From contig CAVWCQ010000008.1 of NCBI GenBank assembly GCA_963753545.1, positions 300,645-364,644 on the forward strand: a DNA stretch of 64,000 bases. Reading direction: 5' to 3'. Each line of letters opens with the position of its first letter. Positions within the stretch are counted from its first letter, which is position 1. A model generated the notes under the pieces. That model did not search any database, had not been told where the DNA came from, and saw only the letters and a program-made list of their open reading frames with translations. The DNA comes from an uncultured Chloroflexia bacterium (GTDB lineage: Bacteria; Chloroflexota; Anaerolineae; Aggregatilineales; Aggregatilineaceae). Made by a program: the position numbers and the translations under genes. This document shows positions 5,499 to 64,000 of the stretch, piece after piece.

Positions 5499-5838
5499 TT
5501 AACTGTCTGCGAAAAATGACCGTTGCAGAAACTGCATCCCCGCCAATATCTGCTTGATGCGTTGTTCAGTCAGTGTCCCGATGTAGTCGCCCAACTGCGA
5601 TTTATTGACGGTGGATACCTTGGAGACTTCTACGACACTCTGTTTAGGTAAATTGCCTTCCCCGGCGTCGAGCAAAACGTTACCCGGCAGGCTTGCCCGT
5701 TTGAGATTAGTCGTCAGCGCGCAAACCACGACGGTTGTGATCCGGCTGTGATTGATCACGTTTTCCTGAATCACCACATGGGATGGGGAATCCCGTTTCT
5801 TCTACTGTGATCCAGTAGATATCACCTTGATTGATCAT
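5499..5838 (-). pseudogene. MazF/PemK-family endoribonuclease toxin interrupted by a +1 frameshift near 5778. No adjacent antitoxin ORF.
   Basis: N-terminal frame reads MINQGDIYWITVEETGFPIP. The downstream frame continues HVVIQEN...TTVVVCALTTNLKRASLPGNVLL...SVVEVSKVSTVNKSQLGDYIGTLTEQRIKQILAGMQFL, which fits PemK-like proteins when joined. Coordinates of the N-terminal part were derived by hand. Confidence 0.6.
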
Positions 5839-5856
5839 AGAACGCTGTCTCCCGTC

Positions 5857-6475
5857 TTAAAGCGATATCAGCCCCAGCCGCAGCCCGATCACGACGGCTT
5901 CGGTGCGGCTCTGGGCGTGCAGCTTGCTCAGGATGGCGTTGATGTGGAATTTCACGGTGTGATCGCTGATATCCAGGCGGCGGGCAATCGCCTTGTTCGT
6001 CAGCCCTTCCGCCAGCAGATGCAGTACCTCGGATTCGCGGTGCGTCAATTCCTCCACCGGGACGGCAGGAGAGGCCGAAGGCAGCGCGCTGGACAGGGCC
6101 GGGTCGAGCGTGATCAGCCCTTCGGCGGCGGCACGAATCGCGGCGACGAGTCGATCCGGGCCGCTGCTGCGCAGAAGCAATCCCCGCGCGCCCGCCGTCC
6201 AGAGTTCGCCCGCACTGTCCGCGTCGGGGAGCAGGGCCACGACCTTCGGCCCGCCCTCGCCCAGATCGCCCAGCCAGTCGGGGAGCCGCTTCGCCTTCCC
6301 AGCCGATATCCCACAGCAGCACATCGGGGCGATAGACATCCAGCGCCGCGCCGATATCGCCATCCCCGGCGATCTGCCCGACAACCGTGCAGCCGGTTCG
6401 GTTCGCCAGGATGGAGGCCAGTCCTGCCCGCGCCAGCGGATCATCCGCGATGATCAAAACTCGTGTCTCGTCCAT
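5857..6475 (-). CDS. NarL/FixJ-family response regulator (receiver + LuxR HTH) with an apparent frameshift near 6300
   Basis: Receiver N-terminus MDETRVLIIADDPLARAGL... is in one frame. The rest of the receiver plus the LuxR HTH (LTHRESEVLHLLAEGLTNKAIARRLDISDHTVKFHINAILSKL) is in the -1 frame. Confidence 0.7.
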
Positions 6476-6667
6476 GTGGGAGACTATACAGGGGAAGGGG
6501 TAAAGGGGGTAAAACGCCTATACGTTTCCTACAGAAACAGCATTTTGTATCCCAGATTGCGGAGAAGAGGGCCTCAGGAGTCCACTTCAGTGGACTTTTT
6601 TCCCTCAATAGCCCTGGATTTTAATCCACGGCGGCGGGACGACCAACACCGTTTTCTTCCATTCATT

Positions 6668-6728
6668 CTCTCTCTGCTTTTCTCCGCGCTCTTTGCGCTC
6701 TCCGCGGTGAAATTTTCTTGTTCTTTTG
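6668..6728 (-). repeat. REP1 copy (reverse orientation, extended)
   Basis: CTCTCTGCTTTTCTCCGCGCTCTTTGCGCTCTCCGCGGTGAAATTTTCTTGTTCTTTTGC. Confidence 0.7.
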
Positions 6729-6876
6729 CCGCTGCTGCTCTCAGCACCAGTAGCACATCCGCCGCGCCTGATCATCCAGCGTGACCATCGCATCATAATA
6801 TGCCTGCCGCAGATCGTCGGCGGACTGAAATGAAAAGGGGCGCACTGCTGCGCCCCCAACTATTCGACAAAGGTAG

Positions 6877-10552: not shown

Positions 10553-10590
10553 CTTTTCTCTTGATTTCTTTGCGCTCTTTGCGTTCTTTG
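10553..10590 (-). repeat. REP1 copy (reverse orientation), abutting MITE-like element copy 1
   Basis: TTTTCTCTTGATTTCTTTGCGCTCTTTGCGTTCTTTG. Confidence 0.65.
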
Positions 10591-10762
10591 TAGATCATCG
10601 AAAGTCGTGCAATGAACAGTGTTTTCCCCTTCCCCCGCGGCTGCGAAGCAAGCAAGCTGTGGGGGAAGGGTGGCTGAACATGCTTTTCCGTTCAGCCGGG
10701 ATGAGGGCCTGCCCGCGATCCGCAACGCTCATTCATCTCACAAAATTGCATTACTTTCATTG
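10591..10762 (+). repeat. MITE-like structured repeat, copy 1 (~175 bp, imperfect CAATGAA termini)
   Basis: Near-identical to the reverse complement of 36573..36748. Internal hairpins CCCCTTCCCCC...GGGGGAAGGG and GGCTGAAC...GTTCAGCC. The track ORF N-terminus MGEGWLNMLFRSAGMRACPRS... is a translation artefact of this element. Confidence 0.7.
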
Positions 10763-10816
10763 TTTTACTTTTGCGGTGATATTTTGTGTTCTTGTTTTCC
10801 GAACCAGGAAGGCATT

Positions 10817-11741
10817 TATGTCCGTCTACGAGGTCGTAAACCTGACCAAGATATATCCAAAGGCGGCTGTTCCGGCGAACGACGGGATCAATCTGACGGT
10901 CGAAGAGGGCGAAATCTTCGGCCTGCTGGGGGATAACGGCGCAGGCAAAACGACGCTGGTACGGCAGTTGGCGAATCTGCTGGCCCCAACGAGCGGTACG
11001 ATCCGCCTGTTTGGACAGGAACTAACGGCTTCACCCCTCTATTCGCCGGGGCAAATCGGCTATATGCCCCAAAACGGTATGGCTCTCAACAACCTCACGG
11101 TGGGCGAAACGCTCTATTTTACGGCACATTTACGCGGATTGTCCCGGCAGGATGCCCGCGCCGAACGGGATCGCCTGCTCGATCTACTCGACCTGGGCAC
11201 CGTGCGGGATCGCATGGCTCCGCGCATCAGCGGCGGTCAGCGGCGGCTGGCTCTGCTGGCGGCGACGATGGCGGCCTCTCCGTCTGTGCTGCTGCTCGAC
11301 GAACCGACCAACGATCTCGATCCGCAGCACCGCCGCCTCGTCTGGGATGTGGTACGGCAGGCCAACCAGCAGCGCGGCATCACGATTATCCTGGTAACGC
11401 ACAACGTCATCGAAGCGGAACGGGCGATTGGGCGGGTCGGAATTATGCGCGCCGGGCGGCTGATCGCGCTGGGACGTCCGGGAGCACTCAAAGCCGAATT
11501 GAACAAGCAGCTTCGCCTGGAAATTGTGTTTCCGCCGGGCAGCCCGCCCACCTTGCCGGAGGGTGCCGCGCCACGCACCGTCGCGCCAGGGCGCTGGCAG
11601 CTTTTGATCAACCGGGCCGACGCGCCGCTGTACCTGAACGCGCTGAACGGGACCAGCACCGTTGAGGACTTTACCCTGAGCACCGCTACGCTGGAAGATT
11701 TGGTTCTCTCGCTGGCTGAACCGGGAGCCGAAACACGATGA
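10817..11741 (+). CDS. ABC transporter ATP-binding protein
   Basis: Walker A GDNGAGKTT, signature SGGQRR, Walker B LLLDEPTNDLD. The track ORF 5' extension covers a repeat element. Confidence 0.85.
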
Positions 11742-12497
11742 ACCGCCACCACCAACCGTTTGCCGTCCAACTATTGAACCTGACGCTGATCCAGCTTGCC
11801 AACTGGCGCTGGTCGTGGCGGGGAATGTTGATCACGGCAGTTGTCGCGCCCGTGCTGACTACTCTCGGCCTGAGCGCGTTTGTTGCCCACAGTGACACCG
11901 AGACGCTGGCTTACATCCTGTCCGGCAATCTCGTCATGTCGCTGTTGTTCGGCACGCTGAATAATGTGGCGGGGCATTTTTCCTATATGCGCATTGTCGG
12001 ACGTATGGATTTTTTCGCCACGCTGCCCATTTACCGCGTGACTCTGATCATCGCCACCGTGTTCGCTTTTCTGGTTCTGGCTCTGCCATCCACGATCGTT
12101 GAGTCTCATCCTCGGCGCTCTGATCCTGCACCTCGATCTGCACATCAGCCCGCTGATCCTGCTGGTGATTCCCCTGACCGGAATGGCCCTCAGCGCGGTC
12201 GGGGCGATTATCGGGCTGGTGATGCGCACGCCGGAAGAGGTCGGGGCGGTCAGCACGCTGCTCACTTTCCTGCTGGTCGGCTTCGGCCCGGTGCTCGTCC
12301 CGCCGGATCGCCTGCCGGGACCTGTCGAGCAGATCAGTCTGATTTCCCCGGCGACCTATGCCGCGTCTGCCCTGCGCCAGACGCTGCTCGGCATGCCGGA
12401 TCGGATTCCGCTGGGCATCGATCTGATCGTGTTGGCGGCGGTGCTGGCCGGATCGTTGTGGATCGCCGGGATGAAGATGGACTGGCGGCAGAGTTAG
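11738..12497 (+). CDS. ABC-2 type transporter permease with an apparent frameshift near 12100
   Basis: Hydrophobic N-terminal half in one frame and the C-terminal TM half (12099..12497) in another. Start overlaps the ATPase gene stop. Confidence 0.6.
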
Positions 12498-16444: not shown

Positions 16445-17760
16445 AGACGGACTCCTTACTATCCACGTACGGCGGACGTTCTTGAGATTGTGACTACTCC
16501 CCACGCCTAAAGGCGGGGGCTTCTATCGGACCGGGCCGAAGGCTCGTTAGTCCACGAGCCAGAATATTTAAAGCAGCGTTTAAATCGCGGTCTATTCTCA
16601 GGCCGCAGTGAGGACAGTCGTGGATTCGCACACTCAACGCTTTGGGAACAGTCGCGCCACAGCCGGAACACAGTTGCGTCGTGCCTCTGGGGTTGACACG
16701 CAGTACAACACGCCCGGCGCTCTCAGCCTTGTACGTGGAGAACTGCACGAATTGAGCCCAGGCCACATCGGCAATATTGCGGTTGATGACTCGCTTCCTG
16801 TCCGACTGCATATCCTGGATGTCCAGGTCTTCAAACACCATCACCTGATAGGCATCCACCAACTGGCGCGACGCCTGATGAGCAAAGTTCGTTCGTCTGT
16901 TCGCCGCACGGCGATAGGCATGATTGAGCGCGCGCAGGACGCGGCGTCGCGCCGGGCTGTCGGTGGCATACCGTTCTTTTTGGCGCTGCAAGCGGGCAAT
17001 ATCCGCCGCGTCCTGTTTCATCCAGCGCTGGCGCTTGATCTGACCCCCGTCCGACAGGGTGGCGAACGTCTTCAATCCGAGGTCAATGCCCACCACGTGA
17101 TCGACCAGCGGCAGCGGTTCGGCTGTCGACGGCACACGACAAGCAGGCAGACCAGTTGCCGACCGTATCGCGGCGGATGGTGACCGTTTTAATGGTTCCT
17201 TCAACCGGACGGTGCACTTTCACCCGCACCTGACCGATTTTGGACAGCAAGAGCCGTTCGCCGTCCAGCCGAACGCCGTTCCCATACTGGGGATAGGTGA
17301 CGCTGTCGTACCACCCGCGCCCCTTAAAACGGGGGTAGCCCGCCGTCTCCCCCGCTTTGACGCGGCGGAAGAAAGCTTGAAAAGCGAGGTCAACACGCTT
17401 GCATGCCTCTTGCAGACTTTGCGAAAAGGCGTGGTTGAGGAAGGGTTGTTCGGTTTTCCAACCCGGGATCAGGTTGATGGTATCAAAACAGCTAAGGGTT
17501 TCGTGGTTCATCTCCCAGGCCTCGCGGCGTACCTCCAGGGTCGTGTTGTACACCCAGCGACAGGCGTCCAACGCGCGCAGCAAAGCACTCCGCTGGGCCG
17601 CCGTGGGCAGCAGTCGATACTTGAAAGTCCGGGTAAGCATCAGCCCTCCCAACAGCACCCCCCACCGAAACTTGCGTCTTGCTGAGGTACGTCCAGGCGG
17701 TAGGGTGCGCTGGACGCAAGCAGACCCTTCCTATCCTACCTCATCTTTCTTTCCGATTAC
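16440..17760 (-). mobile_element. IS1341/ISC-type element carrying only tnpB
   Basis: tnpB without tnpA. Ends are approximate and no clear terminal hairpins were verified by eye. Confidence 0.45.
16494..17658 (-). CDS. tnpB: IS200/IS605-family TnpB (OrfB) RNA-guided nuclease with an apparent frameshift near 17150
   Basis: N-terminal OrfB_IS605 region (17083..17658). C-terminal RuvC-like plus zinc-finger region (CSGCG...CPHCG) in a different frame (16494..17204). Confidence 0.8.
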
Positions 17761-23859: not shown

Positions 23860-24341
23860 TCAACTTCTGTCTCTCGGCTGAATGGTGCTGTCTTCACCGC
23901 TGATCCAACCATAACCCACCGCTGCCGCATCAATATACCACCATGTTCCCGCGCTGTTCCGCCCATAAATCGCGGCAGATTGGCCTGTATAGAGCACCCC
24001 GGCTGGAGCGGTGTTTTTTCCCAGGGAGGGAAAGATCAGGGTATCGCGCTGAGCCGTGATCAGGCAGGGTGGGGGCACCGGTTCTATCTTGCCTTCTTCC
24101 AGCAGACTCTGGTAGAGGCCATCCAGATAGGCATGACCGCCGTAGATGTAACTTGTGTTGTCGGATGGGTCACATACTGCTGGGCGACAATCGCTTCGGC
24201 ATAGGCGGGATTCTCGGAGCAGACGTCGGCAGGGGAGACTGGCGGATCCGTTCCTCGGAGATGGAAGGCCGCCCCGAACAAAAAAGTGAGCATGGCACAG
24301 ATCGGCAGATTCAGGAGGATAAGTCTTCGCATGGCTCCATT
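23860..24341 (-). CDS. small secreted hypothetical protein with an apparent frameshift near 24190
   Basis: Signal peptide MRRLILLNLPICAMLTFLFGAAF in one frame. The C-terminal part (23860..24078) is in another frame. Confidence 0.3.
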
Positions 24342-26383: not shown

Positions 26384-26654
26384 CGGCCCTCGTGGAGAAG
26401 GATTTTTCAAACAGAAGCGGGGCACCCAGTAGGTTGGGTGCCCCGCAGCCAATTGTTATTGCGCTAAACAGGTGATGGAACTGATGAGCCACTCCCCGTT
26501 CCCGCGTTCCAGTGTGAGAGTCGCCAGATCAACCGGGGTGTCACTGCCTGGGAATGTCCCCTGCATCACAACTTCTCCCGGATTTGCGCCGGGAAGAGTC
26601 GTCACCACTTCGGGTTGGTCCTGGGCACACAGCAGCAAATCGCCCAACTGGGTG

Positions 26655-41717: not shown

Positions 41718-42332
41718 TTGGACCAAGGGGAGAATTCGTTTCTCGTATATTTGGCTGTCGAGGGCGATGTTGATGAGGCAGTGGCCCGGCGCATCCTGGA
41801 ATATGTTGATCTGCCTCACTACTTGTTGGCATCACCACCGAACGGGAAGGCGAAACTTCTGGAAAATATGCCCAAGTACAATGAGGCGGCAAAATGGAAT
41901 TGCTGGTTTGTGCTGGTAGACCTGGATCAGAAGCCGGAATGCGCGCCTGATTTGATTCAAACGGTGCTGCCAAAGCCCAGCAAGGGGATGCGGTTTCGGG
42001 TCGCGGTTCATGCGATGGAAGCATGGCTGTTAGCCGATACCGATCATTTATCTGATTTCCTGCATGTGCCACAGACGAAGTTTCCAACTAACCCTGATGC
42101 GGAACTGAATCCGAAAGTTTCGCTGGTGAATCTGGCTCGGCACAGCACTCGCGAGGAGATTCGCAAGGATATGGTTCCTCGCGAGGGTAGCGGCGGCTCA
42201 GTGGGGCCGGGTTATACGGATCGTTTGAGAGAATTTGTAATCACTCGTTGGCGACCAGAAGCGGCGGTTGAACGTTCGGACAGCTTACGGCGCTGCATTG
42301 CAGCATTACAAACATTGAAAAACTGGAATTAG
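41718..42332 (+). CDS. small Toprim-like protein (resembles DUF4276-type partners of AAA_21 ATPases)
   Basis: FLVYLAVEGDVDEAV (conserved Glu in the EG..E motif) and FVLVDLDQ (DxD) resemble Toprim catalytic motifs. Start is 4 nt after the ATPase stop and the gene ends 4 nt before murC. Confidence 0.5.
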   Translation: MDQGENSFLVYLAVEGDVDEAVARRILEYVDLPHYLLASPPNGKAKLLENMPKYNEAAKWNCWFVLVDLDQKPECAPDLIQTVLPKPSKGMRFRVAVHAMEAWLLADTDHLSDFLHVPQTKFPTNPDAELNPKVSLVNLARHSTREEIRKDMVPREGSGGSVGPGYTDRLREFVITRWRPEAAVERSDSLRRCIAALQTLKNWN

Positions 42333-42335
42333 AAA

Positions 42336-43739
42336 ATGCTCCACCCTGGACAGCACATTCACATTGTGGGCGTGGGCGGCTTTGGCATGTCAGCTATCGC
42401 CCGCGTTCTGCTTCAGCAGGGCTACACCGTCAGCGGTTCGGATCTGCGTGAAAATGAATTCACCCGCGATCTGGCCGCAGCGGGCGCGGCTATCTACATC
42501 GGTCATGCGGCGGAAAATATCGCCGGGGCGGATGTGGTCGTGATTACCTCTGCCGCGACGGAGAGCAACCCCGAAGTGAGCGCGGCGCAACGGCAGGGAC
42601 TCCCTGTCTTGCGGCGGCGCGAGATGCTCAGCGAGGTGATGGCTGGGCAGATGGGGATCGCTATTGCCGGGACACATGGCAAAACCACCACAACCGCTTT
42701 GATGGTCCACACGTTGATCGAAGCGGGGCGCGACCCATCCTATATCGTCGGCGGCGTGATGCAAAATACGGGCACCAATGCCGGGGTGGGGCGGGGCGGC
42801 CTCTTCGTGATCGAGGCGGATGAATATGACCGGATGTTTCTCGGCCTGCGCCCACAGATTGCCGTGGTCACGAACATCGAACATGATCATCCCGACTGCT
42901 TCCCAACCACGCGCGACGTCGTACTGGTATTCGAGCAGTTTGCCGATCTGCTGCCTGCGGACGGAGTGCTGATCGCCTGCAACGATGATCCGGCGGCGGC
43001 AGGATTGGCCTGGAAGCGTCGCAGCGCCGGACTCCCTGTGCAGACCTACGGCACCCAACACACTGCTCCTCCGCCAACGTGGAGCGCGGAAAATCTGGTC
43101 TCTGACGACCAGGGCGGAATCAGCTTCACGGCGCGGCACGGCGATCAGGTGATGGGGCGGGTGCGGCTGAATTTATCCGGCAAACACAACGTACTCAACG
43201 CGCTGAGCGTGTTGGCGGTGGCGGACCTCTTAAAAATCCCGTTTGAGCCAGTCGCAGCGGCATTTAACTCATTTTTGGGAACGGGGCGGCGCAGCGAAGA
43301 AATGGGGCAGGCAGGCGGCGTGACGGTGATCAGCGATTACGCGCACCATCCCACGGCGATTCGGGTGACATTGGCGGCACAGCGGGATCGTCCCGGCATC
43401 CGGCATGTGTGGGCTGTCTGGCAGCCGCATACCTATGGGCGGATGCGCATCCTGGCGGATGAGTTTGCCCATGCTTTCGGAGCCGCCGATCATGTGCTGG
43501 TGACGGGTGTTTATTCGGTGCGGGAGCAGATCACACCGGGATTGGATGCACCGGGCATGGCTGATCTGATCCGGGTGATGGAAGCGGGAAAAGACGTGCG
43601 CTGTACCGGATCATTCGACGCGACGGTGAGCGCGCTGATCGAGGGTGTGCAGCCTGGCGATCTGGTGCTGATCCTCTCGGCAGGTGATGCACCGCAAATC
43701 GGCCAACGCCTGCTCGATTACCTAAGAATTTGTTCGTAA
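42336..43739 (+). CDS. murC: UDP-N-acetylmuramate--L-alanine ligase
   Basis: HIVGVGGFGMSAIA, GTHGKTTTT and Mur ligase middle and C-terminal domains. Confidence 0.9.
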   Translation: MLHPGQHIHIVGVGGFGMSAIARVLLQQGYTVSGSDLRENEFTRDLAAAGAAIYIGHAAENIAGADVVVITSAATESNPEVSAAQRQGLPVLRRREMLSEVMAGQMGIAIAGTHGKTTTTALMVHTLIEAGRDPSYIVGGVMQNTGTNAGVGRGGLFVIEADEYDRMFLGLRPQIAVVTNIEHDHPDCFPTTRDVVLVFEQFADLLPADGVLIACNDDPAAAGLAWKRRSAGLPVQTYGTQHTAPPPTWSAENLVSDDQGGISFTARHGDQVMGRVRLNLSGKHNVLNALSVLAVADLLKIPFEPVAAAFNSFLGTGRRSEEMGQAGGVTVISDYAHHPTAIRVTLAAQRDRPGIRHVWAVWQPHTYGRMRILADEFAHAFGAADHVLVTGVYSVREQITPGLDAPGMADLIRVMEAGKDVRCTGSFDATVSALIEGVQPGDLVLILSAGDAPQIGQRLLDYLRICS

Positions 43740-43745
43740 ATTATT

Positions 43746-43786
43746 GGGCGCAGGGCTTGCTTCGCAAGCTGGCAGCGCCCTTACAT
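43746..43786 (+). repeat. REP2 element
   Basis: GGGCGCAGGGCTTGCTTCGCAAGCTGGCAGCGCCCTTACA. Confidence 0.55.
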
Positions 43787-44723
43787 GGTACTGGTGCGGG
43801 AGCAGCCGATGAATGAACTTTATGCCCCGCTGGCGGATCGCTTTGGGGCGGCGCTGCGGCGGAACGATCCCCTGGCGCGTTATACGGTGGCGCGGTTGGG
43901 TGGTCCTGCCGATGCGCTGCTGATCGCCGGATCGATGCCTGACCTGACGCATGCCATCAAACTGGCCCATGAGTATCACATCCCCTGGATCATTCTGGGC
44001 GGCGGCGCGAATGTGCTGATCGCGGATAAAGGCTATCGCGGGCTGGTGATTGTCAACCATACGCGAGCGGTGCGTCTGAACGATGACGGGACGCTGGTCG
44101 CGGAGAGCGGCGCAAATCTGACCACCGTCGCCCGGCGCTGCATGAGTCAGGGCTGGGCTGGGCTGGAATGGGCCGTTAACGTGCCAGGGACGGTTGGCGG
44201 GGCGGTAATCAACAACGCGGGCGCGCACGGCGGCGAAATGTCGCAGTCGCTGCTGTCGGCGGAACTGCTCGAACTGGGCGAAAAGGCGGGGATCGCGCTG
44301 TGGCCCGTTGAAAAAATGGCATACGCTTACCGTTATTCGGCGCTGAAGGGACAGCATGGGCGCTATGTCGTGCTCTCGGCGCAGCTTCGGCTCGAACCGG
44401 GGCACGATCCGGCAGCCCTCAACGAAAAGGCCGACGGATACATCGCGCACCGCAAGCGCACGCAGCCGCCGGGAGCCAGCCTGGGCAGCATCTTCAAGAA
44501 TCCGCCGGGGGATTACGCGGGCCGACTGCTCGAGGCTGCCGGGCTGAAGGGGCAGTCGATTGGCGGCGTGCTGATCTCGCCCGTCCATGCCAATTTCTTC
44601 ATCAACACGGGGCACGGCACGGCGCATGACTATTTCGCGCTGATCCAGTTGGCGCGGGAGACGGTCGAGGAGAAATTCGGCGTCCGGCTGGAGTTGGAGA
44701 TCGAGACGCTGGGCGAGTGGTGA
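43785..44723 (+). CDS. murB: UDP-N-acetylenolpyruvoylglucosamine reductase
   Basis: FAD-binding PCMH domain ([17 protein letters not shown]). C-terminal MurB domain ([11 protein letters not shown]). Confidence 0.9.
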
Positions 44724-44812
44724 AAAGAAAAAGCAAAGAAATTTCACCGCGGAGAGCGCAGAGAACGCAGAGAAAAGCAAAAGAGAGTAAAGAGAAAAAA
44801 GAATTTCATCAA
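44723..44812 (+). repeat. REP1 copy (extended) after murB
   Basis: GAAAAGAAAAAGCAAAGAAATTTCACCGCGGAGAGCGCAGAGAACGCAGAGAAAAGCAAAAGAGAGTAAAGAGAAAAAAG. Confidence 0.7.
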
Positions 44813-44829
44813 GGACTTTTTTCAGCCCC

Positions 44830-46300
44830 TTCAGCTCGGCTTTATCCATATTCAGGCGACATAGCAAAGGGCCTCCACGAGATCATCAAGGACGGCGGCA
44901 GGAAATGCAAGAAGTCGGGTGTTGGTGAGGGAGTTCGAGAATTTAGCGTGCTGCCAGAGGTAACGGCGGACGAAGGCGATGACGTCGGAAAAGGTGGCCT
45001 CCGGCTTGGTGTACCAGACGGCGGAACGAGTGGGTAGGGGCTGGTCGCTGAGCAGATGGTGGGCCAGCAGGGTGACAAGCGAGAACAAACCCAGGATAGC
45101 GGGGGTGGTCCGGGCAATAGCGAGGGGATTCCATTGCCGTTGGGTCTCAAAGCCAAGATGGGCACGACATTCTTGAAAGGTGACTTCGACATTCCAGCGC
45201 AGCACGTACCAGGCGATAATCTGCTCGGCACTGACGGTCAGGTCGGTGCAGCAGAAAGCAGCGGCCTTGAACTTGCCAGCCGGATCGCGGACCAGCACCC
45301 AGCGGATGGGCAGCGGGTCTTTCTGGCTGGGGGTGTGCCAGAGCGCTGTCCCGCTGACCCACTCGACTTGCCGCGACTTGCCGCCATACCAGGCGATAGT
45401 CTGCTGGGTCCAGCTGGTGTGGGGGTATCCAGGTGGGCTTGCAAGGTCGGCTGCCGGGGGCCGAGGCGGGGCGTTTTCCCCCGTTTGCCTGGCGCTTTCG
45501 GCTGGGGCGGATCGAACAGGCGAATATTGAGATGCAAGCGCGAGACAAAGGTGACGGGGTGCCGATAGCGATTACAGCGCAGCCCCAGGCGGACGGCGAT
45601 CAGCCCGCCATCGGTGATCAAAACCAGCGAGCGCTCCGGCAGCCAGGCGCGGACCTGGCTGGTCATCTGCCGCACCCAGTCAATGCTGGTTTTGTGCCGC
45701 TGTCCCAGCGCCTGGTTCGTTTTCTCATGCGGGGCCAACGCCGTCAAAACGGGCAGCGCCCAGGGCCGTTTACTCCAGGGAACCGAGACCACGATCATCA
45801 AACTCACCCAGCGCAAGCCTTCACTGGCAATACTGTGCTTCTCACTCGACAACACCGCATCCCGGAAATGCCCTTTGGTAGCGAGCAGTTTGGCGCGCTG
45901 CCCTTCCAAGGTTTCATCTGCTGCCAGGATGACGGGTGCGCCTGCTGCCACAAACGCCGCCACCAGCAGCCCCAACAGGATACGGCTGACCCGCAGACTC
46001 GACCAGTGCGCTCGGTTCAACACGCGGTGATAGTTTTGATACTGTCGTTCCTGGCTCAACCCCATGATGCGCAGTATCGCCGTCACCGTCCGTTGTTTCG
46101 GTGCCAGAATCGCCCCCAGCACCAGCACCTGGACCCAGTGCCAGATCCGTTCGCTGAAAACTGGCGCAAAGTGTTGCAGCACGACCATAATCTCTGCGGG
46201 CATGGTAAGCATAGAACCTCCTTTGAACAGAAGTCCCAGCTTACCTTGCCCTTCTTTTTCGTCCACCATATGGAAAAAGTCGACTAAAGGGACTCTTTCC
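44830..46300 (-). mobile_element. IS701-family insertion sequence between murB and the WD40/ftsQ genes
   Basis: Transposase gene with short flanks. Terminal inverted repeats not confidently identified. Ends approximate. Confidence 0.45.
44852..46213 (-). CDS. IS701-family (IS4 superfamily) DDE transposase with an apparent frameshift near 45300-45550
   Basis: N-terminal MLTMPAEIMVVLQHFAPVFSERIWHW...AILAPKQRTVTAILRIMGL (IS701-like). C-terminal DDE region (IIAWYVLRWNVEVTFQECRAHLGFE) is in a second frame. Confidence 0.7.
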
Positions 46301-46351
46301 AGCGGGCTTATCGGTTTTTCTGCTAGACCCAGCGCTGGGATGCAAAAAACC

Positions 46352-50991: not shown

Positions 50992-52243
50992 ATGAATGAG
51001 CCACTGCCTTTGGGCGAAAACTTTGCAAGTATTAAAGTGGTTGGGATCGGCGGCGGCGGCGGCAACGCGGTCAACCGGATGATCGAAGAAGGTTTGGGCG
51101 GCGTTGAATTTATTGCGATTAACACCGACGCACAAGCCCTCCTGCTCAGCAAGGCCAAGACGCGTGTTCGCGTTGGCGAAAAACTGACGCGCGGCCTCGG
51201 CGCAGGTGGAAACCCCGATGTAGGCCGTAAAGCTGCCGAAGAAAGCGCCGACGAACTGTATGAAGTGCTGCGCGGCGCGGATATGGTGTTTATTACCAGC
51301 GGCATGGGCGGCGGAACGGGCACAGGTGGTGCCCCGGTGATCGCGCAGGTCGCCAAAGAACTCGGCGCGCTGACCATTGGCGTGGTGACACGTCCGTTCA
51401 CGCTTTGAAGGATCGCGCCGCATCCAGGGCGCTGAAGCGGGCATCGAAGCGCTGAAAAGCCAGGTGGATACGCTGATCGTGATCCCCAATGACCGCCTGC
51501 TGCAAATCGTGGACAAGCGCGCCAGCCTCAACGATGCTTTCCGGCTGGCTGATGATGTGCTGCGGCAGGGTATCCAGGGCATTTCCGAACTGATCACCGT
51601 TCCTGGCCTGATCAACCTGGACTTTGCCGATGTCCGCACGATTATGTCGGAAGGTGGGGCGGCGCTGATGGCAGTCGGTCGTGCCAGCGGCGAAGATCGC
51701 GCCCGCAAGGCCGCCGAAGAAGCGATCAGCAGCAGCCTGCTCGATGTGACCATCGACGGCGCGCGCGGCATCCTGTTCAACGTGACGGGCGGCCCCAATA
51801 TGAGCCTGTTTGAAGTGAACGAGGCCGCCGCGATTATCAAGGAAACGGCGCACCCCGACGTGAACCTGATCTTTGGCGCGGTGATCGACGAGAATATGGC
51901 GGACGAAATCCGCATTACGGTGATCGCCACCGGATTCGAGCAGTCTCGCGTGGCGACACGCCGCCCGGTGAATGCTAACGAGCGCATCCGCCCGGCAGCA
52001 GCGAATACAGCGGCCCGCCCGGTCGCTCGCCCGGCACAACAGCCGCAGCAGCAACCCCAGCAGCCGCCTCAGCAGCCCCAGCAGAACCAGGATTTGCTGG
52101 ACGATGACCTGGAACTGCCCGGCGCGCCGCAGCAGTCACAGCCGCAGCAGCAACCTGTGGTGCGCAAGCCCGAAGAGGAATTCACCTCACGGGTGTACGA
52201 CACAAATGACCTGGATATTCCGGCGTTTTTGCGCCGCCGCTAG
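50992..52243 (+). CDS. ftsZ: cell division GTPase FtsZ with an apparent frameshift near 51400
   Basis: GGGGNAVN and [13 protein letters not shown] tubulin motifs in frame 1, ending VVTRPFTL*. The continuation (F)[32 protein letters not shown] and the rest run in frame 2 to the conserved C-terminal peptide [13 protein letters not shown]-rich linker. Confidence 0.9.
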
Positions 52244-52293
52244 GCTTTATTAGCCGGGGCATTGGTTTATCCAGATACCCGCTCTCCTGAACG

Positions 52294-52356
52294 CTGCCTT
52301 TCTGGTCCGGCTGTTTTGGCCTGCCTGCCTGACCGGAAAGGCAGTGTGTTTTTTAT
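52294..52356 (+). terminator. putative intrinsic terminator after ftsZ
   Basis: CTGCCTTTC...GAAAGGCAG stem with an inner GC-rich structure, followed by TGTGTTTTTT. Confidence 0.45.
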
Positions 52357-52606
52357 AACTCTCATGCTGGGGCAAGGGGATAAAGTTTTCTAACGGTAAT
52401 ATAACCGCCAAAAACACCTGAGTCCTGTAACCTGATTCTCTCTTATTTTGGCCCGAATACGGATCAGCCGGGCGAAAAACGAGGATGTGGGAGCGGAGCG
52501 TTTTAAGCTATCGGGATAATGTTTTCTAACCGTAAAAAAACCACCAAAAGTACCTGGGTACTATGTCATAGAATGTCTGTTCATGTTACTATAAAAGTCC
52601 ACTGTA

Positions 52607-52654
52607 CCCCCACATATGGGGGGTGGATGGCAGTGGAACCCCCATATATGGGGG
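52607..52654 (+). promoter_or_regulatory. pair of NrdR-box-like palindromes upstream of nrdR-nrdJ
   Basis: CCCCCACATATGGGGG (52607-52622) and CCCCCATATATGGGGG (52639-52654), centres 32 bp apart, ~80-125 nt upstream of nrdR. Confidence 0.55.
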
Positions 52655-52731
52655 TAGTCCTCAAGATTTACGTGTACAACGACAGTTTGTAACCCTATAT
52701 ACGGTCATTAAAAGAAAATCAGGGACGACCT

Positions 52732-53244
52732 ATGAAGTGTCCGTACTGCGACGCGGATAATGCATCGTCTGTCATCGACACGACACGCGATTTGCAGGAT
52801 GGCATCCGTCGCCGGCGGGAGTGCCAGGTTTGCGGGCGGCGTTTCAGCACCTATGAACGCGTGCTGCGGGCCACACCGCTGCTGATCAAAGGAAATGGGG
52901 ATCGGGAAGCGTTTGACCGGGAGAAACTGATCCGGGGGATTCGGATTTCCTGCGCGAAACGCCCTATCCCTGCCGCTGCTATCAATGATCTGGTGGACCA
53001 GATCGAAACGCACCTTCAGAACATGGGACGCGATGAAGTCTCCAGCCGGGTCGTAGGGGATATGGTGATCGAGGGGCTGAAAGCACTCGATCCGATTGCT
53101 TATATCCGCTATGCGATTGTTTACCTGGGGCTGGACAGTTTGACCAGTGTACGGGATATGCTGGACAGCTTGCTGGGCGAACGAAATGTGCCCGTGAACT
53201 TGCAGGATGGTGCAAGTTCGGAGCCTGACGCGCCGCCGTCCTAA
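52732..53244 (+). CDS. nrdR: transcriptional repressor NrdR
   Basis: Zinc ribbon MKCPYCD...CQVCGRRFSTYERV plus ATP-cone. Confidence 0.9.
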   Translation: MKCPYCDADNASSVIDTTRDLQDGIRRRRECQVCGRRFSTYERVLRATPLLIKGNGDREAFDREKLIRGIRISCAKRPIPAAAINDLVDQIETHLQNMGRDEVSSRVVGDMVIEGLKALDPIAYIRYAIVYLGLDSLTSVRDMLDSLLGERNVPVNLQDGASSEPDAPPS

Positions 53245-53351
53245 AGCACATCAAGCCAATTTGAACATTTCGTGGATGGTTCGACCTGTTCAGGCGCAGA
53301 ACCCAGTATTTGATTTTTGTTTTTCCGGGCTGCGCCACACCGATATCACGG

Positions 53352-56310
53352 CTGCACAAGGAGATGGAAATGGTGGATGTGAGGAAGAAGAAGAACAAAG
53401 ATGTTGATCCGCGTGCAAATGGCTTTCAGAAGTTGACGTTACCGTCCGACCTATCGCGCGATATCCCGCTGGGGGAGAACGCGCGAACGGTGCTGCGCAA
53501 ACGGTATCTGCGGCGCGGCGAAGACGGCCAACCCGTTGAAACTGAACAGGAAATGTTCTGGCGCGTTGCCTATCATGTCGCGAAGGCCGAGGAAGAATCG
53601 GGCGGCGATGTGGACGGGGCAGCGCGCTCTTTTTATCACCTGCTGACGGATTTACGATTCTTCCCGAACAGCCCGACTTTTACCGGGGCGGGTACTCCGC
53701 TGGGGCAGCTTGCCGCATGTTTTGTGCTCGCCATCGAAGACGATATGGGCCGGACAGGCACGGGCATCTTCGAGACGCTGCGCAATGCCGCGCTGATCCA
53801 GCAGACGGGCGGCGGCAACGGCTTTTCGTTCAGCCGTTTGCGTCCCAAAGGGGCGATTGTGCGCTCATCCAACGGCGAGGCAACCGGGCCGATTGGCTTC
53901 CTGCGCGTCTACGATCAGGCGTTTGGGGAGATCGCTCAGGGGGGAGTCAAGACGTGGGGCGAATATGGCTGTATTGCGGGTGGATCATCCCGATGTGCGC
54001 GAATTCATCACCTGCAAGACGGACGAGAACCAGATCACCAATTTCAACATCAGCGTGGGCATAACGGATAAGTTCATGTCCGCTTGTGAAAAAGACGAGG
54101 ATTTTGACCTGATTAACCCGCAGGATGGCAAGGTCTGGGAAACCGTTCGGGCGCGCGAATTGTTCGATCTGATCGTCAAGCATGCCCATCACAACGGCGA
54201 GCCGGGCGTGCTGTTCCTGGATGCCGCCAACCGCGATAATCCCGTGCCACATCTATACGAATTGGAGAGTACGAATCCTTGTGTGACTGGGGATACGCTT
54301 GTCGCGACTCCTGCTGGTTGGCGGCGAGTAGATGAGATTCAGGCCGGGGATGTGATCTGCACGGTTCTCGGCACTGGGCGCGTTGAAACGGTCGAGGTTC
54401 ACGATGCGATGCCCGTTTACGCGGTGCATTTCTCCGATGGCGGCATGGTAAAGGCGACAGCAGCCCATCAGTTTTATGTGTATGATCCCCTGTCTGATTC
54501 CTATGTGCCGCGCCGGGTTGACCGCCTTCGTTTGGGCGAAGCCGTGCATGTGTTCCAGCCTGTGATGGCGGGTATGGTGGAAGCAGAGCAGGTCGATCAG
54601 ACTGCAACAGTGGTTCAGATCGAAGAGGCCGGAGTTGATACGGTGTACGACCTCTATGAGCCGGAAAGCGATACCTGGATCACCGAAGGGTATGTCTCGC
54701 GGGGCTGCGGCGAGCAGTTCCTTGGCCCATATGAAAACTGCTGCCTGGGATCGATCAATCTGGCCCAGCATATCACGGCGGATGATCGCGTGGATTGGGA
54801 CAAACTGCGCGAAGCGGTCGAACTGTCTACGCGCTTCCTGGATGATGTCGTATCCGCGAACAAGTACGTGCCCGCCGTGCCGGAGCTAGAGAAAGCCGCT
54901 CACCGCGTTCGCCGCATTGGGCTGGGGATCATGGGGCTGGCGGATATGATGTATGCGCTCGGCGTGCGCTACGGCTCCGTCGAGGGGCAGGAATTTGCCA
55001 GCCAGATCATGGAATTTGTGCGCTTCCACGCCATGCGGACCAGCATCGAACTGGCGCAGGAGCGCGGCCCCTTCCTGGCAATTGAGGGCAGCATCTATGA
55101 TCCCGCCAATCTGAAGTGGCAGCCGCCGAAGTCGCTGGTTCCGTATAAACACGACTGGGGCCGTCCGGCACTGGATTGGTCGCTGATCGTGGCGGGGATC
55201 AAAGAGCACGGAATTCGCAATGGGGCGCAGTTAACTACCGCTCCAACCGGAACAATTTCTACGGTTGCGGGATGCGAGGGTTACGGCTGCGAACCTGTCT
55301 TCGCGCTGGCCTATATGCGCTATGTGAACGACAACGGCAAAAAGCTCACGCTGCAATATACCAGCCCGCAGTTCGAGAAGGCGCTGCGCGACGCCGGGCT
55401 GGATGATCCGACAATCAAGCGCATTGTCGAGCAGGTGAACCAGACAGGAACCTGCCAGCATATCAAGGAAGTGCCGGAGCATATCCGCCGCGTGTTTGTC
55501 GTCAGCGGGGATGTAAGCGCTGAGGAGCATGTTCGGATGCAGGCGGCACTGCAATCGTTCACTGACAATGCTATTAGTAAAACTGTGAATTTTCCCGTCG
55601 GGGCTTCTGAAAAGGATGTAGCGACGGCCTATATGCTCGGCTGGAAGCTCGGCTGCAAGGGGCTGACCGTCTATGTGACCGGGAGCCGCGAAAAGGTCGT
55701 GTTAGAGACGGCGGAAACGGCGAAAAAGAAGGAAGCGCCGCAGCCTGCCCCACAGCCCATCGCGCAGAGCAAGACACTCTTTAACGAGGAAAAGAAACCA
55801 CGTCCCCGCCATCTATCGGGCAAGACGTACCGCGTCCAGACGCCGCTCGGATCAACTTATGTGACCGTCAATGAGAACGGCGAAGGCGCGGGCCAGCCTT
55901 TCGAGGTCTTCCTGCACAACGCCAAAGCCGGATCGGAGACCGCGGCGGTATCGGAAGCGCTGGGGCGGCTGATCTCCTACCTGCTGCGCCTGACCTCAAC
56001 GGTCAGCCCGCGCAACCGCCTGACCGAGATCGTCCGGCAGTTAAGCGGCATCGGCGGCGGGCAGTCGGTTGGATTCGGCCCGGCGCGGGTGCGGAGTTTG
56101 CCGGATGGCGTGGCGCAGGTCTTGCAGGAATACCTGGACGAGAGCGAAGGACTGCTCGATGAGTCCGTTCCGGCGGCGGAACCTATATCGGAGAAACAGC
56201 TCACGCTGCCGTTGAAGCTGGGCGATCTGTGCCCGGAGTGCGGATCGGCTACGCTGGTCAATGAGGAAGGCTGCCGCAAGTGTTATAGCTGCGGGTTCAG
56301 CCAGTGCTAG
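53352..56310 (+). CDS. nrdJ: adenosylcobalamin-dependent ribonucleotide reductase (class II, NrdJ) containing a mini-intein. Apparent frameshift near 53950 at an extra A in GTCAAGACG.
   Basis: [40 protein letters not shown]...[19 protein letters not shown]-terminal Cys cluster. Removing one A restores [20 protein letters not shown]. Confidence 0.85.
54280..54705 (+). other. 142-aa mini-intein inserted in the NrdJ NPC-GEQ active-site motif. Non-canonical C-terminus.
   Basis: Block A CVTGDTLV, block B TAAHQF, block [23 protein letters not shown], then +1 Cys (CGEQ). The last two residues are RG rather than HN. Confidence 0.7.
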
Positions 56311-60960: not shown

Positions 60961-60999
60961 CCGATCAATCAGCCCCCGGACAATAGCGGGGGCATCTCT

Positions 61000-61479
61000 A
61001 TGAGAGAGTGCACTGTGGCGAAATATATCTATGGCGAACGGATTGGAAAGTCTGCCCGGCTTCGTACCGGATGTTCGGCAGTGATCTTTGATGACGACCG
61101 GCGAGTATTATTAACCCGCCGCGCTGATAACGGGCGGTGGTGTCTGCCAAGCGGCGGCGTTGACCCTGGTGAAAGCGTGGCGGAAACCTGCATTCGCGAA
61201 GTGAAAGAAGAAACGGGTCTGGACGTACGCATCACCCGGTTGATCGGCGTGTATTCATCGCCTGACATGATTATTGAATACGAAGATGGCAACCGTTGGC
61301 AGCTTGTGGCTCTGTCTTTTGAAGCGGAAATCATTGGCGGGCAGTTGCAACTCAGCAACGAAACGACTGGCTATGGATTTTATAGTGTAGCTGATATGGC
61401 AGCGATAGATGTGATTGAACCTCACCGCGAACGCATCTCGGATGCGCTTCTTCATGAGGAGAAAACGTTTATTCGCTGA
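61000..61479 (+). CDS. NUDIX hydrolase
   Basis: Nudix box LPSGGVDPGESVAETCIREVKEETGL. Confidence 0.8.
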   Translation: MRECTVAKYIYGERIGKSARLRTGCSAVIFDDDRRVLLTRRADNGRWCLPSGGVDPGESVAETCIREVKEETGLDVRITRLIGVYSSPDMIIEYEDGNRWQLVALSFEAEIIGGQLQLSNETTGYGFYSVADMAAIDVIEPHRERISDALLHEEKTFIR

Positions 61480-61579
61480 TCCACTGTTTACGACGTGAAC
61501 CTCGTATAACAATCTGGAAAATCTCTCTCCTCATCCCACACTTTCCACGCTCGCCGTGCTTAAGCCTCGTGGAGTAGTC

Positions 61580-62992
61580 ATGAAACCCCGAACCCTTTTG
61601 CTTGGATGCGCGCCGCTGGTTGCGGCTGGCATTCTGATCTTCTATGCGCCGTCGAACAAACCGCTCAAGGCGCAGCAGTTCCAGGCGGCGCAATGCTGGT
61701 TCGATATCCCCTCAGCGATGGATGTCACCTGCGGAACGGTTAACGTGCCGGAGGATCGCTCAAAGCCCCTGACCGAAAACAACGCCGTTCAGATCGCCAT
61801 CGCCGTTTTTCATGCTACCATGCCGTTGCCCGATCCCGTATTTCTGCTGGCGGGTGGACCGGGCCAGGGGGCGATTGATTCGGTAGTGATAAATCCGGAT
61901 ATGCTGAGCTTCGTCATGGAGAATCGCGATCTGGTTGCCATCGATCAGCGGGGAACGGGTTATACCGTCCCATCACTGGACTGCCCCGAATATGATGCGC
62001 AGGAATGCCGCCAGCGGCTGGTTGGGCAGGGCATCGATCTCAACGCGTACAACAGCGCGAATAATGCCGCCGATATTGAGGATGTGCGCGCGGCATTGGG
62101 CTATAACCCGATCAATCTGCTGGGCGGCTCCTACGGGACGCGGCTCGGCCTGACCGTGCTGCGCGATCACCCGCAAGCGATTCGCAGCGCCGTGCTGGAT
62201 TCGGTGGTGCCGCCGCAGGTTCACGTTGACGCCGCGCTGGACAGCCTGCCGCGCGCCCTGGCGGTTCTGTATGCTGACTGTGCCGCCAATCCAGCCTGCC
62301 ATGAAGCTTATCCTGACCTGGAAAATACCCTTTATGCCCTGGTGGAGCAGTTGGATTCGATGCCAGTCTCGATCCAGGTGGATGAGGAAAGTGTCAGCCT
62401 GGACGGGCAGCGGTTTATCTCGCTGGTGGGGCAGGCGCTATATTATGTTGAGGCCTTTCCCGCGCTGCCCAAACTGATTTACGATACTTATAACGGCGAG
62501 ACAGAAACGCTGGAGACATATGTGAGGGGACTATGGGGGGCGGCGGACACAATCAACGAGGGTATGATGTGGTCCGTTCACTGCTCTGAAGAGGTCGAAC
62601 ACGAAACCGAGCAGGAATTCAGAGAAGCGGCGCTGAAGGTTCCCGCTGCTATTCGCGATCAGGTTGTGGAGGATAGGCTGCTGTCGATGGTGCAGATCTG
62701 CCAGGAATGGAATGTGTCGCCCGCTTCGGACCTTGAGGAGCAGCCTGTCAGCAGCGATGTACCGACGCTGCTGCTGGCCGGAAGCTATGATCCCGTCGCT
62801 CCGCCGGAATGGGCAGCGCTGGCGGGCAAGACCCTGAGCCACCATTATTTGTATGTGTTTCCTGGAACGGGACATATCGCCTTTCGCACCAGCCCGTGCG
62901 CCCAGTCGATTATCCTGCAATTCCTGGATAGCCCGGCGGCGGACCAAACTCGGCGTGTCTGGAAACAATGGGGCCGCCTGTTTTTCAGATAG
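61580..62992 (+). CDS. secreted alpha/beta hydrolase (S33 prolyl-aminopeptidase-like)
   Basis: Signal peptide. Nucleophile elbow GGSYGT. alpha/beta fold length. RBS GGAG before the ATG at 61580. Confidence 0.6.
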   Translation: MKPRTLLLGCAPLVAAGILIFYAPSNKPLKAQQFQAAQCWFDIPSAMDVTCGTVNVPEDRSKPLTENNAVQIAIAVFHATMPLPDPVFLLAGGPGQGAIDSVVINPDMLSFVMENRDLVAIDQRGTGYTVPSLDCPEYDAQECRQRLVGQGIDLNAYNSANNAADIEDVRAALGYNPINLLGGSYGTRLGLTVLRDHPQAIRSAVLDSVVPPQVHVDAALDSLPRALAVLYADCAANPACHEAYPDLENTLYALVEQLDSMPVSIQVDEESVSLDGQRFISLVGQALYYVEAFPALPKLIYDTYNGETETLETYVRGLWGAADTINEGMMWSVHCSEEVEHETEQEFREAALKVPAAIRDQVVEDRLLSMVQICQEWNVSPASDLEEQPVSSDVPTLLLAGSYDPVAPPEWAALAGKTLSHHYLYVFPGTGHIAFRTSPCAQSIILQFLDSPAADQTRRVWKQWGRLFFR

Positions 62993-63202
62993 AATGAGGG
63001 CATAAGCCGCCCAACAACCGTAGGGCAGGCGGTGTTTTAACGTTGCGCCTCAAATTTGGGAATGCCTACAATTAAAGTAGGCATTTCTTCTACTTCCCCA
63101 TCCCCCACTCAAGGGAGGTTTTTCGTTGGCTGAATATCCACCTATAATGACGATCAGCACTTATCGCCTGTACAGAATTCTTTGTTTACGGGAGGATTTG
63201 CT

Positions 63203-64000
63203 ATGACTAGAAGGATAGCATTGTGGAGCGCCGCCCTGGTGCTGGCGCTGACACTGGCCTGGATACTGGGTGGAGCGCTGGTCGTACAGGGCGCGCCGCA
63301 CCGCCAGCAGGATATCCTGCCGCCCGAAGTTTACGACACTTCGCCACTCCCCGGCGAAGAACTGGCCCTAAACGGCACCGTTACGTTTTATTTTAACCAG
63401 CCGATGGATCCACAGTCGGTAGAAGCCTCCTTTGGGGTGCAGCCGGGCGTTGCTTATGCCATCACCTGGGCTGATGAACTCGACGATGGTTTTCACGCCG
63501 CAGGCAGACTACCAGCGGGCGAGCGAATATACGTTCACCATTGGAACCGAGGCGATGTCAGCGGCGGGCGTGGCGATGGAAGAGCCATTCACCCTGAAGC
63601 TGCAAACCATCGGCTATCTCGATGTGTCGGAAGTGCTGCCCGCGCCGGACAGCGAAGCGGTAGATACAGACGCCGTGATCACGGTGATCTTCAACCGCCC
63701 GGTGGTGCCACTTTTGACCGTCGAGGAGATGGATACGCTGCCGCAACCGCTGGTCTTTGATCCTCCGGTTGAAGGGACAGGCGAATGGCTGAACACGTCC
63801 ATTTATGAGTTTAAGCCCACTGATGGGCTGCGCGGCGGCACGGAATACACGGTGACCGTTAAGGCAGGGCTGACGGATGTCACGGGCAGCGAACTGCCGG
63901 AAGATTATAAGTGGGCCTTCTCGACCCTTCAGCCCGACGTGCTGGAGATTTACCCCAGCGATACCAGCACAGGGGTGATGCTAGAAGATGACATTACCGT
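63203..64000 (+). CDS. secreted Ig-like-domain surface protein (partial, runs off the window). Apparent frameshift near 63490.
   Basis: Signal peptide MTRRIALWSAALVLALTLA. SbsA-Ig-like repeats (VTFYFNQPMDPQS, VITVIFNRPVVP) continue in a second frame to the window end. Confidence 0.45.

Follow-up and report, generated by a model that had tools for sequence, protein, structure and literature searches.

In the 64-kb stretch of DNA analysed here (the window; positions are counted from its first nucleotide), genes that include ftsZ, murD, nrdJ and uvrC are split between two reading frames by single-base insertions and deletions (indels). Taken as a class, these lesions are very probably errors of the assembly, i.e. 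a matter of data quality rather than a biological feature, and comparison with related sequences makes a strong case for this, short of proof. Between 5.5 and 64 kb, 13 of approximately 50 genes (about a quarter) are broken, and the lesions add up to 15 single-base indels (10 insertions and 5 deletions) and one nonsense codon. This corresponds to about one lesion per 3.7 kb, a density far above that of a finished genome. The first-pass annotation of this DNA had reported at least 12 genes split between frames and about one lesion per 5 kb. All 12 of the genes that it named are borne out by Pfam, tblastn and three-frame views; its estimate pointed in the right direction and was slightly too low.

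The reading that we favour is the following. A genome assembled from a metagenome as a single contig of 4.19 Mb, presumably with long noisy reads, would retain in its consensus approximately one erroneous single-base indel per 4 kb. An indel in a coding region would split the gene into two frames, and gene callers would then emit truncated proteins. Names of the contig_N type and a single contig of 4.19 Mb would fit a metagenome assembly made from long reads by Flye or a similar program. It is likely that the living cell has intact ftsZ, murD, nrdJ and uvrC. The likely exception is HEC-01A, the ATPase gene of a candidate defence system, which may be a real pseudogene.

Lesions were detected by Pfam searches on stop-to-stop open reading frames (ORFs), by tblastn with ORFs from 35 related loci and in three-frame views. 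They were placed to within a few bases by three-frame views together with nucleotide and protein alignments, over the region 5.5–64 kb. In split genes such as ftsZ, nrdJ, murD, tnpB and the AAA_21 ATPase gene the two ORFs match consecutive parts of one Pfam profile. Removing or adding one base per site gives full-length matches to orthologues or to Pfam or PADLOC profiles. In the comparison with orthologues, which had been proposed as a check, the frames switch at a single point, and one-base repairs restore the proteins.

Housekeeping genes

The four housekeeping genes carry exactly one lesion each, and the protein identity to orthologues on either side of these lesions is 65–92% (tblastn). 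The genes and their lesions are:

50992–52243, plus strand: ftsZ; an extra C51403 or G51402, TTCACG[C]TTTGAAGG
35036–36450, plus strand: murD; one base missing at 35757/35758 (CCGGG-CGAG)
53364–56310, plus strand: nrdJ, class II ribonucleotide reductase; an extra base, A53945 or G53946
24487–26383, plus strand: uvrC; an extra C at about 25237 (GTG[C]GCT)

The two halves of ftsZ lie in two frames, the first matching Tubulin 1–152 and the second 152–190 together with FtsZ_C. Every ftsZ orthologue from the 35 related loci changes frame at 51404/51405 in tblastn, and the gap site was placed by nucleotide alignment to two relatives (L040 and L045). Within the order, FtsZ identity is 80–92% upstream of the lesion and 66–80% downstream. 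After repair the protein matches Tubulin 1–190 of 190 with 173 bits. In murD, tblastn with orthologues shifts from frame 2 to frame 1, and the orthologue P0016 reads APGRVAYFS. Before repair Mur_ligase_M 1–135 is found in one frame, followed by Mur_ligase_C; the repaired gene covers Mur_ligase_M 1–200 of 200. The RNase H and helix-hairpin-helix (HhH) domains of UvrC sit in the second frame, and orthologues read ISARQRLVAD.

The nrdJ halves also occupy two frames (Ribonuc_red_lgC 1–75, then 73–523), and the lesion is at the 3' edge of a G6 run, 53939–53944. At the junction all 12 of 12 relatives read AQGG-S-RRGANM, and the window has GCT CAG GGG GGA [G] TCA AGA CGT. The first-pass annotation had described an extra A in GTCAAGACG. 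That placement is off by 3–5 bases, as judged by the AQGG-S-RRGANM of these relatives, and we dropped it after all 12 had shown QGG-S-RRGANM.

A cell with broken ftsZ, murD and nrdJ, here all in the canonical division and cell-wall (dcw) cluster, should not grow. The lesions must be extremely recent if they are real, and are artefacts otherwise. That these three genes cannot be pseudogenes in a viable cell had been argued from the start, and it agrees with the single lesions, the conserved flanks and the ease of repair.

The nrdJ gene has a further peculiarity. A mini-intein-like (HINT) insert of 141 amino acids (aa), 54283–54705 on the plus strand, lies in the catalytic NPC|GEQ motif. It starts with CVTGDTLV and ends with ...YVSRG|C, i.e. 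with Arg-Gly instead of the canonical His-Asn. The His-Asn of inteins is needed for Asn cyclisation. The Arg-Gly ending is found also in L006 and in four database proteins, P0274, P0277, P0278 and P0279, from other ENA and Joint Genome Institute (JGI) samples, and the insert of P0279 is even shorter. L005, L010, L025 and L026 have larger inteins at this site, which end with HN|C. The insert looks real, and by its sequence it could be a non-canonical or a non-splicing, domesticated intein. Four relatives (L001, L006, L010 and L015) have an intein of 450 aa (C...HN|S) at the AQGG|SRRGANM junction, the point at which the window has its extra base. The G6 run that results from the Gln-Gly-Gly codons is a simpler explanation for the position of the nrdJ error than the intein junction.

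Same-species and sister assemblies

Two contigs of the same species from other samples, obtained from ENA by cluster look-ups, overlap the window. L041 (ERZ25039513 contig_11872, 5.8 kb) is 97.9% identical to positions 40517–46305, and L044 (ERZ25039545 contig_181551) is 95–98% identical to the window between 56 and 64 kb. In murC and murB 0.5–0.75% of sites differ between L041 and the window, with 13 of 14 differences at third codon positions; judged by its sequence, L041 is a very close strain. The broken genes covered by the two contigs are:

40564–41714, plus strand: HEC-01A, AAA_21 ATPase; three lesions, an extra C at 40645, a TAG stop codon at 40817–40819 and an extra T at 40894
44852–46212, minus strand: IS701-family (DDE_5) transposase; a plus-strand C missing between 45426 and 45427
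63203–64000, running off the end of the window, plus strand: Big_5 Ig-like surface protein; an extra A at 63477/63478

Four of the five comparable lesions (40817, 40894, 45427 and 63477) are absent from the other same-species assemblies, and the one at 40645 is shared. L041 has CAG at 40817, is without the T at 40894 and has the base that is missing from the window at 45427, reading LDDPHTSW in frame. L044 is without the extra A at 63477 and reads WADDSTM in frame; in tblastn against orthologues the Ig-like protein of the window changes from frame 2 to frame 3. The private indels of the window number 3 in the 12.9 kb compared, approximately one per 4.3 kb, which agrees with the density over the whole window.

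The sister assemblies have errors of their own. L041 has lesions at 40788, 41462, 45105, 45287, 45769, 45861, 46255 and 46284, where the window is intact. L044 has 21 private 1-base indels in 7 kb, and these private errors are of the same kind, away from runs, as those of the window. Three insertions in its metallophosphatase gene put 176 nt out of frame, and the GNHD motif is lost. Two more contigs of the same ENA accession series, L042 (ERZ25039545 contig_96740) and L043 (ERZ25039462 contig_28590), have nearly every gene fragmented by single-base indels, including murC, murB, ftsA, ftsZ and nrdJ, at positions unlike those of the breaks in the window. Lesions of this kind are thus much denser in the sister assemblies than in the window. 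Both were considered as same-species references and rejected, as they come from other species (approximately 80–84% identical) and inform on assembly quality only. The neighbouring analysis accessions point to a common source of the ENA assemblies. The explanation proposed in the first-pass annotation, consensus indel error in a long-read or metagenome-assembled genome (MAG), is therefore supported by three lines of evidence: the single lesions of the housekeeping genes, the lack of sharing within the species and the error-rich sister assemblies.

The lesions are part of the public record. In the public collection 18 of 20 intact window proteins were found, each from an NCBI and ENA contig of 4,185,122 bp. 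Truncated N-terminal products are deposited publicly as well, namely FtsZ (138 aa), the ABC-2 permease (270 aa), UvrC (251 aa) and MurD (295 aa), so the frameshifts were not introduced by excising the window. Some of the truncated products serve as cluster representatives, e.g. P0133 (FtsZ, 138 aa) and P0267.

Error profile

Three of the 15 indels lie at most 2 nt from runs of at least 5 identical bases (T5 at 40639, G5 at 45421 and G6 at 53939). There are 233 such runs in the 64 kb, and positions of this kind make up approximately 3% of the window. By chance about 0.5 of 15 indels would be expected near runs of at least 5, and the observed number is about six times higher. About five more indels adjoin runs of 3–4 bases. 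At least five, in the regulator, ABC-2 permease, tnpB, uvrC and Ig-like protein genes, are near no run. Plain insertions without a nearby run are GTG[C]GCT in uvrC, CC[T]CT in HEC-01A and GCG[G]CT in the regulator gene; the ftsZ insertion, ACG[C]TTT, merely abuts a T3 run. Looking for homopolymers at the lesions was thus only partly informative: the T5 and nrdJ lesions do adjoin runs, as had been noticed before, but with 3 of 15 indels at long runs most of the lesions are missed in this way. The error profile looks like low-coverage consensus noise rather than pure homopolymer-length miscounting.

HEC-01 locus

HEC-01A and HEC-01B form a candidate two-gene defence system, PADLOC HEC-01 (40564–42332, plus strand), which lies in the dcw cluster, with cvpA on one side and murC on the other. 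HEC-01B (41715–42332) is intact (E = 2e-60). In HEC-01A two frameshifts and a TAG stop codon fall within 250 nt, and intact orthologues from L012 and L046 align in tblastn to three frames and across the in-frame stop. Before repair the AAA_21 profile is matched at 5–47 and then at 178–304; the repaired gene covers 1–380 of 382 positions of its profile with E = 7e-127. The lesion at a T5 run in the ATPase gene that had been reported earlier is real. The extra base is, however, most simply the C at 40645 that follows TTTTTA, just after the T5 run at 40639–40643, and two further lesions were found.

A related species (L046) has an intact orthologue of 386 aa in the same position between cvpA and murC. 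The 40645 lesion is common to the window and L041. Over the 3' 800 nt of the gene the window and L041 differ by 35 substitutions, of which 25 affect third codon positions; the pattern expected of a pseudogene under relaxed selection was not seen. This bias indicates purifying selection for most of the strain divergence and speaks against an old inactivation common to both strains. The 3' part of HEC-01A differs by 4.3% between the strains as compared to 0.6% in the flanking murC and murB, which suggests recombination or allele exchange at the HEC-01 locus. By its sequence HEC-01A is an ambiguous case, with multiple lesions, a nonsense codon and a shared frameshift, yet with the substitution pattern of a gene that selection maintained until recently. 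Genuine inactivation of HEC-01A is a serious possibility, although we consider it somewhat less probable than an intact gene.

The IS701-family transposase gene can be compared in the same way. Its lesion adjoins the G5 run, and DDE_5 13–241 is found in the upstream frame. The element sits between murB and the WD40 and ftsQ genes of the dcw cluster. It is present at the same place in L041 (4349–5708), so the insertion predates the split of the strains. Six indels are private to the L041 copy. The two copies differ by substitutions that are spread evenly over the codon positions (8, 7 and 4). Decay of the element is one possible reason; another is confusion of the consensus by repeat copies.

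Other broken genes

The remaining broken genes are accessory ones:

5499–5838, minus strand: mazF/PemK toxin; two 1-base deletions, adjoining plus-strand CCC 5792–5794 and GGG 5780–5782
5857–6475, minus strand: NarL/LuxR-type response regulator; an extra G at 6286/6287
11738–12497, plus strand: ABC-2 permease; one extra base within 12098–12103
16494–17640, minus strand: tnpB (IS605 OrfB / Cas12f-like TNB); one extra base within 17120–17125
23860–24332, minus strand: small secreted protein; one base missing at about 24170
26456–27599, minus strand: DUF3828-repeat secreted protein; one extra base at about 26660–26675

The two deletions in mazF are approximately 12 nt apart. With both bases restored the gene reads ...EETGIPHPHVVIQ..., in agreement with the family motif GIPHPYVVIQ of P0227, and the PemK_toxin match grows from a fragment, 24–105 (52 bits), to 2–105 of 109 (72 bits). 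A single +1 insertion had been considered for this gene and was replaced by the two deletions once P0227 had shown GIPHPYVVIQ; the two-deletion model is the only one that recreates the family motif GIPHP(Y/H)VVIQ. The toxin gene starts 19 nt past the stop codon of the LuxR-type regulator gene. As an antitoxin ORF would not fit between the two genes, mazF may encode an orphan toxin or one that is paired with an unconventional antitoxin.

In the regulator gene GerE is in one frame and the N-terminus of the receiver in another. The lesion is marked by a single gap against L037, a relative of 86% identity taken from the Logan assembly of a public sequencing run, and the repaired protein has Response_reg 1–111 and GerE. 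For the ABC-2 permease, ABC2_membrane 112–210 is found in the second frame and 15–210 of 211 after repair. HTH_OrfB_IS605 of TnpB lies in the upstream frame, OrfB_IS605 and the TNB domain in the downstream one. The signal peptide and the C-terminal part of the small secreted protein are in different frames in the three-frame view; no Pfam family matched this protein, and no orthologue was found. The DUF3828-repeat protein is the thirteenth broken gene and was absent from the earlier list. The third of its three repeats is in another frame, and once repaired it can be aligned through the junction with repeats 1 and 2 (E = 1e-8 and 7e-5).

Genomic setting

The window has a GC content of 58%. No tRNA gene and no Rfam match were found by tRNA and Rfam scans across the whole 64 kb. 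Pfam searches on plausible stop-to-stop ORFs reveal the dcw cluster in two parts on an Anaerolineae-type chromosome segment:

19–24 kb, minus strand: dcw part 1, mraW-ftsI-mraY
35–52 kb, plus strand: dcw part 2, murD-ftsW-murG...murC-murB...ftsQ-ftsA-ftsZ

Beyond ftsZ there are nrdR and nrdJ, in this order, and then assorted regulators, WD40/PD40 proteins, transporters and mobile elements. The stretch ahead of the B12-dependent nrdJ (52244–53363, plus strand) matches no Rfam family, the cobalamin riboswitches included. Among species-representative genomes the best FtsA identity is 83%, to MAGs labelled Anaerolineae, Aggregatilineaceae or Chloroflexota; with none above 83%, the source species has no representative among the genomes scanned. 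The source is an uncultured Anaerolineae bacterium close to Aggregatilineales.

The 3' end of ftsW and the 5' end of murG overlap by approximately 75 nt in different frames (38605–38681, plus strand). A lesion was considered here and rejected, since the related contig L038 (Logan assembly) has the same overlap, which is thus genuine. An element of approximately 190 nt is present twice in inverted orientation with 97–98% identity, at 10584–10775 upstream of an ABC ATPase gene and at 36559–36754 between murD and ftsW. Short intergenic repeats that resemble repetitive extragenic palindromic (REP) sequences and contain CCGCGGAGAGCGCGGAG are found at 87–128, 6675–6727, 36463–36607 and 44722–44805. 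A pair of 57-nt inverted repeats (29622–29678 and 30629–30685) surrounds 950 nt of poorly coding sequence, possibly a miniature inverted-repeat transposable element (MITE) or a remnant of an insertion sequence (IS).

Discussion

Several observations weigh against assembly error as the explanation of all lesions. Most lesions are outside long homopolymers and insertions outnumber deletions by 10 to 5, unlike the classic homopolymer deletions of Nanopore data. We found no second same-species sequence spanning the lesions in ftsZ, nrdJ, murD or uvrC. The sequencing platform is deduced from nothing but Flye-style contig names and the 4.19-Mb single contig. Lesions are clustered: mazF has two in a space of 12 nt, HEC-01A three in 250 nt. 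The lesion at 40645 is shared with an independent assembly, and another one is no indel at all but a substitution that creates a stop codon. The window and L041 differ by 13 indels, 12 of which fall into HEC-01A and IS701 and the rest into an intergenic repeat, and there is none in the 2.4 kb of murC and murB. Such unevenness means that error is not uniform or that part of the lesions are real decay of dispensable genes.

As to further sequences from the housekeeping loci, a short-read contig (L036) is 99.3% identical to the window without a gap, and it ends 360 nt before the nrdJ site and spans no lesion. By an identical NrdR and by L036, the species is present in the sequencing runs ERR10755943, ERR12037366 and ERR15459711. 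In a scan of JGI metagenomes a gap-tolerant ftsZ pattern matched nothing but a relative with 73% identity, whose ftsZ is in frame. Protein searches with chimeras of repaired segments of 150 aa from around the lesions returned no same-species protein; the window's own fragments were missed too, which makes this a weak negative. These searches were dominated by FtsZ matches first and by UvrC matches second.

The opposite explanation is that the organism really carries frameshifted ftsZ, murD, nrdJ and uvrC as a degenerating or recently host-restricted lineage. About 25% of genes are broken and some of the lesions are away from homopolymers, as such decay would have it. Broken ftsZ and murD and a broken copy of the sole ribonucleotide reductase gene seen in the window are nevertheless incompatible with growth. 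Each housekeeping gene has a single lesion and no further decay, the murC and murB substitutions against the same-species contig are almost all of the synonymous type, indicating strong selection, and 4 of 5 testable lesions are not shared within the species. We regard genuine decay as very improbable. Real frameshifts could in principle be bypassed by programmed +1 ribosomal frameshifting or by transcriptional slippage, and 10 of the 15 indels do need a +1 correction; at the ftsZ lesion there is even a CTT TGA, which is the slippery core of the +1 site of prfB. This sequence, however, is the automatic outcome of a base inserted ahead of TTT GAA. There is no Shine-Dalgarno-like stimulator upstream of the ftsZ site (the upstream sequence is GACACGTCCGTTCACG), and none of the 30-plus relatives is frameshifted there, all reading TTT or TTC followed by GAA or GAG. 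The other sites have no common motif, and past them up to 40 codons can be read in the old frame before a stop. Long A or T tracts suitable for slippage are missing, the 5 deletions would need a different mechanism, and of the 4 frameshift sites that same-species contigs cover, 3 are in frame there. Recoding of this kind is barely credible. Genuine frameshifts combined with widespread +1 recoding, or the milder idea that the nrdJ lesion, at the AQGG|S homing site of the 450-aa intein of relatives, is the scar of an imprecise intein loss or of endonuclease cleavage and repair, we consider extremely doubtful.

Two other explanations are closer to assembly error. If reads of co-occurring strains with real indels or inserts (intein, IS) had been assembled together, polishing could have left spurious bases at the junctions. 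The nrdJ lesion is exactly at the AQGG|S junction where four relatives have the 450-aa intein, populations of the species are present in several samples, and the variable HEC-01 locus and the IS hold most of the indel differences. The lesions in ftsZ, uvrC, murD and in the regulator, ABC-2 and Ig-like genes, on the other hand, fall into conserved coding sequence of the ordinary kind, where no structural variant is known. The G6 run of the Gln-Gly-Gly codons accounts equally for the nrdJ site, and no intein-bearing nrdJ allele of the same species was found. A mixture of strains is an unlikely cause, though it could contribute. The lesions may also be of mixed origin, those of the housekeeping genes being errors and HEC-01A, possibly also IS701, tnpB and mazF, being genuinely inactivated. 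Such an origin refines the explanation by assembly error and is compatible with it. It would account for the three lesions of HEC-01A within 250 nt, including a nonsense substitution and the 40645 frameshift that is found also in L041, next to the intact 386-aa orthologue that a related species keeps between cvpA and murC. The IS701 substitutions (8, 7 and 4 over the codon positions) are as expected without selection. In HEC-01A, on the contrary, 25 of 35 substitutions at third positions imply purifying selection over most of the divergence. The shared lesion is 1 nt from a T5 run, where two long-read consensuses could repeat a systematic error. L041 is itself error-rich, and the IS701 lesion of the window is absent from it. 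We find a mixed origin plausible, while leaning slightly against it.

With assembly error as the preferred explanation of the class, calls of pseudogenes, truncations or missing domains in this genome are unreliable until it has been polished, and this includes the toxin and the defence candidates. The advice of the first-pass annotation to distrust pseudogene calls in the window, defence candidates among them, was right. The truncated products that are public can mislead completeness estimates, pangenome analyses and pseudogene counts. A simple homopolymer check misses most of the errors; comparison with orthologues or frameshift-aware correction is needed. Gene fragmentation induced by indels is measured by the IDEEL test, and the remedies are short-read polishing or proovframe. 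The latter is a dedicated frameshift-correction tool (10.1101/2021.08.23.457338). The Nanopore consensus is known to keep indels that cause frameshift errors, and bins below approximately 40-fold coverage need short-read polishing (PMC9262707).

Comparison with known systems

The programmed +1 site of prfB, the gene for release factor 2 (RF2), has the sequence CUU UGA C. The ftsZ lesion resembles it in giving CTT TGA with the correct frame at +1. It differs in that ftsZ is without the upstream Shine-Dalgarno-like element and the site is not conserved in relatives. Moreover, in the ftsZ product Leu would replace the conserved Phe of PFxFEG. True pseudogenes of dispensable genes, e.g. of defence systems and IS elements, are resembled by HEC-01A, with several kinds of lesion of which one is shared, and by IS701, with its unbiased substitutions. 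The differences are the third-position bias in HEC-01A, the private nature of most lesions and the fact that housekeeping genes are hit alike.

Artefacts of long-read assembly, Nanopore or PacBio continuous long reads (CLR), are resembled in more than one respect. The consensus contains single-base indels that divide genes, among them essential ones, into neighbouring ORFs in different frames, and the truncated proteins enter the databases. The density of lesions is not the same in all assemblies of the project, as would be expected if it depended on coverage. Classic accounts of the artefact describe homopolymer indels, whereas here 3 of 15 indels touch runs of at least 5 and insertions prevail.

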